Shown: positions 10,990 to 63,616, counted from the first letter of the whole stretch. The stretch: DNA of 63,616 nucleotides, filler included, from Perkinsus chesapeaki ATCC PRA-425 (GCA_013115145.1; 8 parts of 8 records of this genome joined end to end with filler, not necessarily neighbours in it); one strand, 5' to 3'. The notes: generated by a model from the sequence alone, not told the origin. Made by a program: numbers and translations.

Positions 10990-11441
10990 GAGAAGCTTGG
11001 TGAATCTGCAAGTGACACCGATAATTCCTCTCGAACCGCCTGCACGCATGCGCAAGTTTGCACGCATGCGCTTCAAGATACTCGATCACACTCTATAAGA
11101 TACTCCACCTCCTTCTAGTCGGTACCGTCGGAGTATCTCAATCATCCAGCTCCTCCATCCATTTGCGTACTATTAGATACCGCCGCTCTAATTCATGCTA
11201 CCCCTTCTAAGACAAATGCGTGTAAACAGCCAAATCGTGACGCGCCTCTCTCACGCTCCCCTCGCTAATACACTCATCTCCCTCTGTGACTTTGAACCCA
11301 ACATCGACGGTCGTGAAACCAAAGGCGCTCTCTTGGCCTTAATGAAAAGGACAACATACAAAATGAGATAATCGTCAACTTGTCGTCTTCATGTCCGCTA
11401 CACCTTGTCCGACACTGCGGTTTCCGGTGTGTTAGGTTTCT

Positions 11442-14400
11442 TCATTCTCTTGGGATCGTGAGGGGTTCCACGGCGCCAATCAGACTTCCCCTAATAACAG
11501 TATCGTCACGGAAAACACTCCGCATTAAAACATACGCTCGAGCCCGCTGCAGAGGAGCCCCCGCCGCCGCCGGCCATCGCCATCTTCTCGCTTTGCCTGT
11601 ATGCTTTCCACTCACTCTTGGTGTTCTCATCGGGGACAAGCTCGGGTGTACTCCCTCCGCAGTTGAAGCAGCAACACAACCTTCCAAACCAATACTGAAT
11701 CAAGAACCTGAGGACGACATAAAGATATTCTTCATAGTGCGCACGGGTATCTTACAAGAGCGATCCGATTGATTTAACACCGTTGAAGAAGACAACCGTG
11801 CCAAGCACGAAATACATAAAGCTGTTCGCCGAGATCGCCAGCACAGTCGCCGGGCCGGAAGTTCCCTCAGTAGAGCTCGTTACGGCCTACTCATAAAAAC
11901 GGTAAATAAAAATCGCTTCGCTCCGCCTACATAAATAAGAGCCAAATTGGAGATAGCCCAACAAAGCACAAGATAAGTCCTGAACTCGTTACGCTGCGCC
12001 TGAATATCCTTCTGCGTGACGTCGTTCGAATCCAGGCCTTTTGTGCCTGACAGAAAAAATTAATTTCTTATTCAAGTTGTCGATAAGGTTACCCCAGGAC
12101 AGGTCGTGGGTGTTGCAGAATGCGAAGGTTTGGAAGATGTTAATATACGTCGGTGACATAAACGTATATTGTAGGTAGTTGGCCAGTACGTGTACACCCT
12201 GAAGAATAACAAAGACATCTGAAAACTAAGATTAAATTTAAAGTGCGCAAGTTGAGAGACCAGATGCTTCCGCTGGATAATCGTCAGCCTTTGAAACGGT
12301 AGTCAGTGTAATCGTACGATAGAGCCGGTTGCCCAGGACACCGACGGTAACGAGTAAGGAATAGATGCACTAGGACGCACATGTGTGTCGGTGAGGGTAG
12401 AAGTACTTCCAAAGAGGAAGTTTGAGGGGTAAACCTGGTAAGGCCAGTCTAGGATACCCACGAGAAAACTATTTTTCCTGAGATGATTGTCAAGGAGATT
12501 CTATTCCACTTCCACGCACGTCTAGATACATCCAAGCGCTCGCCTACATACATTTCAGAAAGACCCTGTCGGAAAACCAGAGGGCAGCAGATAATCAGAT
12601 TAAGCGAATACCAACTAAGACTTCCGCACTGCTTCGATCCAGGGGTCATAGAGGAACACCAAATCTTCCGCGAAGGAATGCGCTCTACTTCTCATTTTGC
12701 TCTGGGATCATAATTTCTAAACTGATTCATATTTCACCTCAGCATTAGGAACAGTGTTACACACACGAAGAAAACATTCCTGCGAGGCTAGATTAATCCC
12801 TGGTTCGATCCCTGGTGGCTGCAACTTACTTCACCATGTAGAATAGCGACCACAACATAGCTGAGCACAGCAGCAAGGCCAATCGCCATCAGCACTATCT
12901 GGGACGATGTTACAACGTTATAAACAGCTACGGCGAAAGTAGCTATCATAAATATACCAAATACGAAGGATATCAACTTATACCTGAAAAACGACTAAGT
13001 CAAGTTTCAATGGTACGGCTTACAGTGCCCGCAAAGATCTTCGGGGTGAATCTGGCTGGGTACCCATAGCCAGAAGAAAAGTAGTAAACATGAGAATGAG
13101 GTATCTGGAATAACGCACTATAAAGATTCCTTCTCCTTATCAGCCAATAACGCACTGTAAAGATTCCTTCTCCTTATCGACCAATAACGCACTATAAAGA
13201 TTCCTTCTCCTTATCGGTCATTAACGCACTATAAAGATTCCTTCTCCTTTTCGACCAATAACGCACTATAAAGATTCTTTGGAAATAACGCACTATAAAG
13301 ATTCCTTGGAAATAACGCACTATAAAGATTCCTTGGAAATAACGCACTATAAAGATTCCTTCTCCTTTTCGACCAATAACGCACCATAAAGATTCCTTGG
13401 AAATAACGCACTACAAAGATTCCTTGGAAATAACGTACTATAAAGATTCCTTCTCCTTATCGGCCAATAACGTACTATAAAGATTCCTTCTCCTTATCGG
13501 CCAATACCGCACTATAAAGATTCCCTCTCCTTATCGACCAATAACGCACTATAAAGATTCCTTCTCCTATCTTACATGAACTGTATCACAATATACACTG
13601 CATCTGCTCCAGGAAATAAAAGATTCCCTCCATCAATCAGAAATGAATTCCACAATATAATGAAAGTAAGGTAAAAGATACCCACCAGGAACCACGACAA
13701 CAAAGTGTTCAACGCCGAGAACCTGACAAAAATACATGCCAAGTTTCACTTCGTAACAGAGTGCCCTCGAAGGGATAATAAAAGTACGACTCTAGCGATC
13801 TGAGCATCAAACAGTCTAGGTAGGGAGCGCAGTCAGTTATTCATAGGGGAAATATTTCATATCAGATTCCCACATCACCAAACATACAGCAATAATATCA
13901 ATATAAACAATAAAGTTATTAATCCCAATGTATCAGCCTTCCATCAGCTCTCGAGCGTCAGAAGCAGTCCCAAAGCAAAAGAAGGCATTAGATGCCTTTC
14001 ATCGATTCCCTCCTCTATGACCCCCCCAAACCTACAACAACTCGTTCATCAAGATAAGCTTTCTAAACCAAGAGTGCTTCGTAGTGAAGATCCTAAACTG
14101 CAGCAGACCCTGCCAAAGCGCAAAGATTTGTGCGAAGAACGATCCGTTCATCCACCGCCTTCTTTGCTTTATCAACGCGGCACAGTTGTCCGGAACCTGC
14201 GTGGAGGAAATGCAAGTGGGAGCAAGATTTCAAGTTACGTCGGTCACTGCAACGGAATTCTTAACATATTTTAGAGTGTTGGCGGCCGTTCGACTGCAGA
14301 CCAACTCGAGTGCGAGAATCCGATCTTCCGCAAGATACCTGATGACACAAATCGATCACTTGATCGATTTGTCGCTAGTACATATTGCCATAAAATGGAT

Positions 14401-61555: not shown

Positions 61556-61971
61556 GTAGGCTGGTATGATTTGAGACTGATCACGTACTTCCTGTCTGTG
61601 TTACTCCCTTAGCTACGCTTCCCTTCACCAGCAGTAAGTCGCCGAAGTAACCTACGATTGTAGCGTAGTCAGATTTATCAACACTTTTGTTCTGAATGTT
61701 GTATGTTCCCTTTCATCAAACATGTTTATTAGTTGATTTGTACCGCATATTTATCATCAGTGATGTTGTACTTGTTGTATATCCGAGGGTGTTGAGTTTC
61801 GTATCATAGATTATTAAGGAAGTACCACATAGCATCATCATACTGTACAAAATCCCGAAAATAGTTCCCCANNNNNNNNNNNNNNNNNNNNNNNNNNNNN
61901 NNNNNNNNNNNNNNNTTAATTAATTAANNNNNNNNNNNNNNNNNNNNNNNNNNNNNNNNNNNNNNNNNNNN

Positions 61972-63616
61972 GGAACTTCTGCGCCCGAATAGGGAACTTC
62001 GCGTTGACAGGCGAGAAGCAGAGAACAACGTGAAGATTATCTCTTAGACGGTCCAGGAAGTAGCCGTAGAGGTTGATCATGTTCTCGTCCGCGCCCGGCC
62101 GCTCCTTCACGAAATCGTTGCGGACATCGGCGCACATGCTATCTCTCTCGTCCTTCTGGAAGAGGCCAGCGATCTCTCCGGTAGCCAGAATGCTGTTCAT
62201 ATACTCGAGGAAGCCTTCGTTCTTAATCTCAGCGTCGGTGAACAAGAACGTCACAGGATTTCCCTTCTGACCGGCGTCCTGATAGAGACCGCGAAGGTCG
62301 TCGAAGAGAGCATTGTCGTTGTAGTTCTTGGTAAGGGCGATCTGGAAGCACTTCTGGTTGCACGTGAAGCTGCTAAGTCTCGTCAACGATTGCTTGCCGC
62401 TTCCACCGACACCGACAAGCATCGCGCTGCCTCGCTTCTGCTGGATCGTTCGGACGATTCGCATCATATGGCACATGGCGTCGTCGAAGAGCACGAGGTT
62501 CATCGACTTCGCTGGGAACGCGTCATTAAACTTTTTCAGGTACTCATACGCCTTGGAGCGGACCCGGTCGAAGTTGGCACCGATTGGCTCGTACACCTTC
62601 GGCGCCTCCAATTCCTCTTCTTCGCTCTCTGGTGCCTAACGCAGCCAACGCTAAGGGCTAGAAGGGGCTTGCGAGGCCTAAGACTTACATCTCTCAAGAA
62701 GTCAGCCCACCAGGTGGTGACAGCGTGATCGGCTGCTAGCTTCTCGCCAAAGTGCTGCAGCGTGAAATCATTGATAACTTTATCGACAAAGTCCTTGTCG
62801 ACGGTCCTGGCAAGCTTGTCAGCGAACACTCTGGTACACTCGTGCTTCCATAGACAGACGAGAGTGCTCTCGTCGGTGATAACCTCGAGCGGGGTGTCCA
62901 TAACACCTTGGAAGACTCGAGACAGTTCACGCATGTTGAAGACGTAGTGGAATCTTTGCGGAGTCGGCAGAAGTGATCGCTTTATCTGGGAAGGAAAGAA
63001 CGCTAGACACCTCAGATCCAATGACATGTGCTCACCTTGTCCCAGACGTCGATGGTGGCCACGGTTAGCTTCTTCGTCATTGCGACGACTCTATCAGGTG
63101 CGCCGGACTTGCTGTTGAATCGTGCCCTCAGAATACTGCCGTAGATGTTATCGACACTCACGACACTCGGCAGGACCATATTGAAGGCGAAGAACTTGCT
63201 CTTGGTTCGGTTAGGTATGTCGTTCCTGCCTCCACCAGGGTGACCCATCGCGCCGATGTAGCTGAGCTTCTCGATAGTCTTGAAGTCGCCACGCTTGTCC
63301 TTATCAAGGAAGTAGAAGCCGCCCATGTCGACAAGCTGTCTGGTGAGCTCCAAAGTGACCTGGTCGCCCCACTGGTTCACCAAAGGCATGCTCATATCGT
63401 CCAAAAAGATCGTCATCGGCTTGCCGCCCGGAGGGCAGAAAGTCTTGCCGGTCTTCCGCTCAACTTCGGCCTCAACAGTCCTCTGGAAGCCCTCAGGCGT
63501 CGTTGCGCTGCTAAAGTTAATTCTCTTGGAAAGGCGTTCGTCAAGGGAGAAGTTCTGCACATACATCATGGCCGTGCTGGTCTTAGCGGTACCACTCGCG
63601 CCCACCATGAGAGCGC
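61972..63616 (-). CDS. Axonemal dynein heavy chain fragment (AAA3-AAA4, outer-arm DNAH5/8-like); introns 62636-62688 and 62986-63035
   Basis: GASGTAKT and GVGGSGKQS P-loops, RINFSSATTP, IFLDDMSMP..WGDQ.T.E, HYVFNMRELSRVFQG. Confidence 0.97.

Follow-up and report, generated by a model that had tools for sequence, protein, structure and literature searches.

The subject of this analysis is a group of short introns that carry recurrent sequence modules, among them one resembling the 3' part of a tRNA gene, in a 63,616-nucleotide (nt) stretch of DNA from Perkinsus chesapeaki ATCC PRA-425 (GCA_013115145.1), referred to below as the window. Eight contigs make up the window, joined by N44-TTAATTAATTAA-N44 linkers, and its 63.6 kb do not represent a single molecule. 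They are contig 1 (1-2581, GC content 0.49), contig 2 (2682-22659, 0.44), contig 3 (22760-41916, 0.43), contig 4 (42017-51919, 0.44), contig 5 (52020-56070, 0.52), contig 6 (56171-57785, 0.44), contig 7 (57886-61871, 0.43) and contig 8, the dynein contig (61972-63616, 0.54). The genes considered here are a Mei2-like RRM gene on contig 2, an LRR-PDZ gene on contig 3, a sulfate permease-STAS-cNMP (SulP) gene on contig 4 and a fragment of an axonemal outer-arm dynein heavy-chain gene on contig 8. All the closest named proteins of the window come from Perkinsus olseni; identity is 74% for a sulfate-permease-like protein, 95% within a single exon for a PDZ-domain protein and 64% for an RRM protein with a Mei2-type domain.

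Introns of the LRR-PDZ gene were mapped with a purpose-written protein-to-genome spliced aligner, using the 913-residue P. olseni protein P0163 over positions 34323-39900. They were not taken from ab initio exon chaining, which over- or under-called introns. The aligned part of the gene (34435-39649, plus strand; residues 67-912 of P0163) contains 22 introns, of which 17 are short (34-61 nt by the aligner, 40-61 nt with the donor at 39440) and five are long (197-659 nt); two weakly aligned boundaries are approximate (acceptor 38003 versus 37997, donor 39467 versus 39440). The first-pass annotation had described here a PDZ gene with five consecutive introns (37945-37997, 38064-38107, 38178-38223, 38268-38320 and 38450-38501), each carrying one module. 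These introns are borne out by a reading frame that stays open upon their removal and by the P0163 alignment, and their modules follow in the order given (T arm, 13-mer, ATCTTG family, T arm, ATCTTG family). The extent of the gene, however, had been greatly underestimated, as the five introns belong to the 22-intron LRR-PDZ gene. A metagenome scan for relatives of the PDZ protein found none.

By eye, 16 of the 17 short LRR-PDZ introns, all on the plus strand, carry a recurrent module, the sole exception being the 50-nt intron 37671-37720. Eleven modules are tRNA-like. Seven of these contain the tRNA 3' part in sense orientation: 34508-34552 (45 nt), 34668-34711 (44 nt), 36849-36894 (46 nt), 37945-37997 (53 nt), 38268-38320 (53 nt), 38978-39028 (51 nt) and 39440-39500, for which the aligner chose the donor at 39467 and the GTAAG donor lies at 39440. 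Four are antisense: 34863-34916 (54 nt), where the 5' splice site falls at the reverse complement of the acceptor-like end, 35141-35198 (58 nt), 37493-37537 (45 nt), and 36642-36682 (41 nt), a weak call with a decayed T-arm-like core (nhmmer E=3.4). The other five modules comprise two of the GCGCATGCG type (34998-35037, 40 nt, with an antisense GCGCATGCGTGCA motif, and 35794-35844), one 13-mer (38064-38107, 44 nt, ending in CGCGCCACGAAAT followed by AG) and two of the ATCTTG family (38178-38223, 46 nt, ATCTTG/TTGCATTTCCTCAACG, and 38450-38501, 52 nt). The long introns (35283-35742, 35900-36558, 37052-37396, 38644-38840 and 39152-39381; 1891 nt together) are rich in GGAAAATTT/TTCCGGAAAA-type motifs and hold no tRNA-like copy except one weak one. 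An in-frame TGA at 37838-37840 suggests a 23rd intron. The sole unit that would remove it is a 30-nt GT..AG segment (37820-37849), beside which the 13-mer occurs in antisense; the TGA may be explained by an exceptionally short intron, by an error or by a defect.

In the well-aligned part of the SulP gene (46859..50558, plus strand) the P. olseni models P0001 and P0152 support 11 introns; alignments of P0152/P0156 upstream of 46859 and downstream of 50558 were dropped, reflecting low similarity or a fused gene model. Recurrent motifs are present in each of the eight shorter introns (44-80 nt): the 13-mer (47101-47145), the ATCGATCA..TGATCGAT palindrome (47434-47485), an antisense ATCTTG unit (47554-47598), a GTATCTT...AAGAT hairpin unit (48262-48309), TTCCGGAAAA (49461-49504) and two weaker motifs. 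A 368-nt intron (48443..48810, plus strand) contains two tRNA-like copies, a complete sense unit at its start (48443-48486) and a decayed one at about 48565-48600. Another feature inside a SulP intron is a 28-nt tandem repeat at 48926-49093, beside an assembly gap; one copy of its unit occurs at 11720-11743 on contig 2. Some module introns (34508-34552, 34863-34916, 35794-35844 and 37493-37537 in the LRR-PDZ gene, 48262-48309 in SulP) have a length divisible by three and no stop codon in frame. Six-frame translations therefore read through them, and such mini-introns are easily taken for coding sequence.

The introns of the remaining two genes are plain. The Mei2-like gene (9662..10989, minus strand) has three homology-mapped introns (10755-10799, 10594-10642 and 10305-10347), and the dynein fragment (61972..63616, minus strand) has two (62636-62688 and 62986-63035), placed by open frames and Pfam continuity only. 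To compare introns objectively, we counted for each the number of other loci in the window that share with it an exact, non-simple 10-mer. Such a 10-mer recurs at three or more other loci for 18 of the 26 LRR-PDZ, SulP and RNA-supported introns versus none of the five Mei2-like and dynein introns (Fisher p=0.008). At two or more other loci the same two sets give 24 of 26 versus one of five (p=0.002), and the classes assigned by eye separate 16 of the 17 short LRR-PDZ introns from 0/5 of the plain set (p=2e-4), all of these being post hoc tests on four or five genes. Exon windows with at least three loci number 5/29 in LRR-PDZ, 5/36 in SulP, 1/21 in the Mei2-like gene and 0/29 in dynein. The absence of modules from the dynein and Mei2-like introns, stated in the first-pass annotation, thus finds support in the 10-mer count. 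Intron density also differs: 8.8 introns per kb of coding sequence in LRR-PDZ, about 4.9 (summed by hand) in SulP, 2.5 in the Mei2-like gene and 1.3 in dynein. Subtraction of the module introns leaves LRR-PDZ with six introns (classes by eye) or ten (10-mer measure), that is, 2.4-4.0 per kb.

On a larger scale, modules are not evenly scattered either. Shared 10-mers occur in 16-23% of 50-nt windows on contigs 3-4, in 3-7% within 2682-12681 and in 0-4% on contigs 5-8. The proposed division of introns into two grammars, module-bearing and plain, therefore stands as far as it concerns their unequal distribution among genes and regions. A correlation of intron class with GC content had been proposed as a further check. 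The dynein contig is indeed GC-richer, as had been noted (0.542 versus 0.433-0.444 in contigs 2-4), and the GC content at third codon positions (GC3) of dynein is 0.72; however, the plain Mei2-like gene has a GC3 of 0.46, similar to the module-rich LRR-PDZ and SulP genes (0.49 and 0.43), and GC fails to sort the classes.

When aligned, 22 copies of the tRNA-like module are arranged like a tRNA gene in its 3' part: GTC, resembling a variable loop, a T arm whose GGTTCGA core is exact, a stretch of about 7 nt in place of the acceptor strand, an A and an oligo-T run, followed in sense copies by AG. The motif GGTTCGAWYC has 21 matches in the window versus 0.60 expected (the largest number in any shuffle is 4), corresponding to 20 distinct sites, one of them inside a true tRNA. 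A profile built from 19 module rows, with the three true tRNA genes excluded, recovered the 3' parts of two of them (E=3e-4 and 2e-3), its match to the third being weak (E=1.0). None of the modules is a functional tRNA gene: the Rfam tRNA gathering score is reached only by 505-577, 674-756 and 819-889, the best module scoring 12.6 bits, and at E values up to 10 the only Rfam families that the modules match are tmRNA, for a T-arm piece, and tRNA, weakly and once.

The longest copy is a 75-nt intron on contig 3 (23262..23336, plus strand), a near-full-length, decayed tRNA-like sequence with an oligo-T tail. It aligns to positions 8-63 of the Rfam tRNA model with 12.6 bits (E=9.5), well short of the gathering score, and is the only copy with an A-box-like part. 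Contigs of two presumed-RNA runs skip it without mismatch (23213-23261, 23337-23394, 23682-23747), which is the only direct sign of splicing; these runs touch few places. Decayed cores are found at 36642, 48565 and 23310.

Each of the 11 tRNA-like LRR-PDZ introns has the acceptor/trailer end of its fragment directly at an intron boundary; the anticodon-ward end is variable. When the copy is in sense, its oligo-T run and AG constitute the acceptor. When it is antisense, the intron begins at the reverse complement of the fragment end; at 37493, for example, the GTAAAG donor is the oligo-T trailer in reverse complement. tRNA-like modules, in either orientation, take up nearly the whole of introns 44-58 nt long. 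Modules are also dispersed outside the window: 384 contigs of DNA sequencing run X1 match contig 3 at 90% identity or higher, 279 of them only in part, with the loose ends clustering at module borders. A test for open frames in the surroundings of modules proved powerless, being passed by 74% of modules versus 81% of controls.

Other motif families are likewise overrepresented. The motif GCGCCACGAAA has seven matches in the window versus 0.03 expected, and TTGCATTTCCTCAACG, with up to two mismatches, has six versus 0.05. Palindromic families include GTATCTT...AAGATAC and ATCGATCA..TGATCGAT. Derivation of the ATCTTG family from 5S rRNA was considered and rejected, having no Rfam support. Modules also occur outside introns, at 39659-39688 and, on contig 5, at 52097-52130 and 52501-52539. 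The first, an ATCTTG-family module on the plus strand, lies just 3' of the LRR-PDZ stop codon, outside the mapped introns; presumed-RNA contigs of runs X6/X7 contain a 32-nt match to it, the rest of these contigs being unlike the window. Two tandem GCGCATGCGTGCA motifs (11031..11072, minus strand) are located 42-83 nt upstream of the Mei2-like start codon, where they could possibly represent a promoter element, and GCGCATGCGTGCA is also present about 130 nt upstream of a contig-5 open reading frame (ORF). Further module copies are found on contig 2 (12802, 15559 and 16417), the contig of the plain Mei2-like gene. Long introns (2712 nt) show a weak periodicity of A/T tracts at 10-11 bp (autocorrelation 0.07-0.08 at lags 10-12 and 20-22), which is near zero in three coding controls.

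We propose, with slightly better than even confidence, that the short introns were made by inserted 3' parts of tRNA genes and other short multi-copy repeats, that genes differ in how many such introns they gained, and that plain genes keep older introns. Chiefly, a fragment comprising the variable loop, T arm, acceptor-like strand and oligo-T from the back of a tRNA gene would insert in either orientation and create a new intron rather than enter an older one. In a sense insert, the pyrimidine tract and acceptor would come from the oligo-T tail and AG; in an antisense insert, the reverse complement of the fragment 3' end would supply the GT donor. The fragments themselves may be 5'-truncated copies, 3'-anchored on unprocessed Pol III transcripts or tRNA genes. 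The 13-mer, the ATCTTG family, the GTATCTT hairpin, the ATCGATCA palindrome and GCGCATGCGTGCA would be further short repeats, some of them possibly factor-binding sites. An intron of 44-58 nt filled by its module has no room for an older intron plus an insertion. Taken together with the abutment of fragment ends on splice sites and the long introns without a good copy, this leads us to infer that a 3'-anchored, 5'-truncated fragment made the intron. The rise of intron density with module load is what uneven gain of module-made introns would give. On balance, introner-like gain, uneven among genes, is the likely explanation, rather than a gene-licensing code. We suggest more tentatively, at odds somewhat short of even, that tRNA back parts are an undescribed intron-making element of Perkinsus that brings along one splice site and has given rise to the majority of short introns in some genes while sparing others, and that their B-box core may in addition be kept as a protein-binding site in the DNA.

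A number of observations weigh against intron gain. Target-site duplications were not found, there being only 4-5-nt junction matches at 5 of 26 introns, nor were terminal repeats seen in the tRNA-like family or presence/absence differences between haplotypes listed for contig 3. The introner screen in supplementary Table 4 of PMC9860276 reports none for P. olseni or P. marinus. Outside the core, similarity among copies in the window is only about 44%, and neighboring tRNA-like introns are not closer kin (the best match lies within 1 kb for 1 of 19, permutation mean 1.6, p=0.71), so that no recent burst is visible in the window. T-stem pairing amounts to 72.7% of cells versus 68.1% in shuffles and is reached by 43 of 500 shuffles. 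At 20 sites, nevertheless, the 10-nt core is exact despite decay of the T stems. This resembles constraint on the core, and a DNA-level role would be compatible with it as well; either many source lineages needed their B box, or selection acts on the core in place. Moreover, the first search was seeded with this 10-nt core, which biases the picture, and the plain set consists of five introns in two genes, with the classes picked in the first-pass annotation after viewing.

The latter point also bears on whether there are two classes of introns at all. It might be argued that module introns are common everywhere, the five plain introns being a small hand-picked sample and the LRR-PDZ gene the sole outlying hot spot. 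Besides the size of the plain set, the contrast given by tRNA-like modules alone (11/17 versus 1/9, p=0.014) lends itself to this argument. However, with all families counted the contrast holds at both 10-mer thresholds, and module density differs regionally over 10-kb stretches; we therefore consider a lack of two classes unlikely. Another way to explain the contrast away is a mixed assembly in which GC-rich contigs with plain introns belong to another organism, as the high GC and GC3 of the dynein contig and its lack of any of the motifs might suggest. Sequencing depth, which the first-pass annotation had named as a check on single origin, was compared between contig 3 and the dynein contig in two DNA runs (X1 and X2) from two studies. 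In X1, contig 3 pieces have depths of 96-102 and the dynein contig 152-167, with the two alleles of a bubble at 62611-62722 at 85 and 84; in X2, the corresponding values are 71-122, 167-218, and 108 and 99. Thus, each dynein allele equals contig 3 in depth and the collapsed parts are at about twice that, so that the dynein contig is a collapsed haplotype pair of a genome with contig 3 at single-haplotype depth. A contaminant is not expected to match depth in this way in two studies, and the dynein contig very probably comes from the same organism as contig 3. In addition, the best solved relative of the dynein fragment is a ciliate outer-arm dynein, which fits an alveolate, and the plain Mei2-like gene, whose closest protein is from P. 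olseni, shares contig 2 with module copies. Contig 5, also GC-rich, holds tRNA-like pieces and a GCGCATGCGTGC motif typical of the other contigs. A second organism is accordingly the least probable of the explanations considered.

Two further explanations assign the modules a function where they stand. The first-pass annotation saw in them working DNA signals (TFIIIC B-box sites, palindromic factor sites and periodic A/T tracts) that mark or license a chromatin domain. The exactness of the core against variable flanks and stems, its occurrence in both orientations, as a DNA site may occur, the GCGCATGCGTGCA motifs ahead of the Mei2-like start and the contig-5 ORF, the weak A/T periodicity and the uneven regional density all agree with this idea. 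On the other hand, a site of about 11 nt leaves unexplained why a whole tRNA 3' part with its trailer fills the intron, why the fragment 3' end is always at a splice site and why long introns are without it. Decayed cores exist as well, and GC does not separate the classes. Licensing by intron-borne signals fares poorly with modules that lie in both orientations, fill short introns and are nearly absent from long ones, that are multi-copy genome-wide (matches of at least 90%) and occur outside introns too, and whose load is followed by intron density. We find it doubtful, although the invariant B-box-like core, as a predicted site, leaves room for a DNA-level role and the TFIIIC idea. Alternatively, the modules might act in RNA, by forming hairpins or T-loop-like folds and so aiding the definition of very short introns by the spliceosome. 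Sense copies do place oligo-T and AG at the acceptor, and several families are palindromic. Yet in a folding test of ten module and five plain introns, only one module intron folds better than shuffles at z < -2, T-stem pairing scarcely exceeds that of shuffles, and antisense copies, which yield a different RNA, are introns too. Barely paired T stems and the lack of unusual folding make a role of RNA structure improbable, more so than that of DNA signals.

The window contains several other features. A cluster of three true tRNA genes on the plus strand (505-890) comprises Glu-CTC, a gene with a 13-nt intron (674-756) and Gly-GCC. Adjoining it is a U6 snRNA-like 3' half with an oligo-T run (1204-1255, minus strand; 30.2 bits with the Rfam U6 model, gathering score 44), which has no U6 5' part. 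Contig 5 (52020..56070) is probably a mobile element: it carries two long intron-free ORFs on the plus strand (52460-54295 and 54220-55851) with abundant Cys-x-x-Cys pairs and no Pfam match. The two modules mentioned above belong to tRNA-like pieces in its non-coding start, on the minus (52097-52173) and plus (52501-52539) strands, and a decayed tRNA-Phe-like sequence and a purine-rich tract are found ahead of the ORFs. Tandem arrays are present at 13072-13605 (units of 37/27 nt), 19801-20070 (45 nt), 25121-25245 (25 nt) and 34099-34224 (39 nt). On contig 7, tandem paralogous ORFs (58529-59383 and 60011-60889, within 58442-61530) have flanks that are 85-98% alike and no Pfam match.

The origin of new spliceosomal introns is a long-standing question. 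The known intron-making elements are, to our knowledge, transposons of at least a hundred bases. Here, the smallest workable introns (44-58 bases) are little else than a tRNA-gene fragment, in either direction, and in the genes richest in module introns, introns are three to six times as dense as in neighboring genes. If these are true gains, they point to a new and very simple intron source, one that would escape the published screens that score Perkinsus as introner-free. As the spread among genes is uneven, any bias of insertion or of retention can also be measured directly. The contribution of this window lies in the contrast between genes, the link to intron density and the check that the contigs compared belong to the same organism.

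For P. marinus, intron lengths are given as 39-1622 bp, with most below 100 bp (PMC3101222). Full-text searches yielded no paper that describes Perkinsus introns with tRNA-like sequences or other motifs. Several known systems are nonetheless comparable. Introns of Caenorhabditis elegans contain periodic A/T clusters, and the longer Perkinsus introns resemble them in a period of about 10 bp, which here is weak and was measured on 2.7 kb only. Extra-TFIIIC sites of yeasts and animals are isolated B-box-only cores that lie away from tRNA genes in either orientation. The Perkinsus modules share a B-box-like core, predicted from sequence, at far above the expected frequency; they differ in that the core comes with the rest of the tRNA 3' part and has a fixed place in short introns. 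tRNA-derived short interspersed elements (SINEs) are tRNA-related, possess a B-box-like core and are dispersed in many copies in both orientations. In all these respects, and in the oligo-T end, the modules are alike. SINEs, however, combine A and B boxes, a body, a tail and flanking duplications, and this combination was not found among the modules in the window: most are 3'-anchored pieces of about 35-55 nt without the A-box half, the body/tail region or flanking duplications. Introners are known from Micromonas, Aureococcus, fungi, dinoflagellates and Amoebophrya, and neither tRNA nor SINE is mentioned in the main text of two of the reports (PMC9860276, PMC12130899). Relative to the introners described in these and related reports (PMC4457414, PMC7789003), the Perkinsus modules are short (about 20-50 nt) and tRNA-derived, no target-site duplications or terminal repeats were found in them, and the copies in the window are old and diverse, yet other genomic contigs match them at 90% or higher. 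What they have in common with introners is a sequence shared by the introns of unrelated genes, an element that makes up nearly the whole intron, splicing in both orientations and a load that varies from gene to gene.

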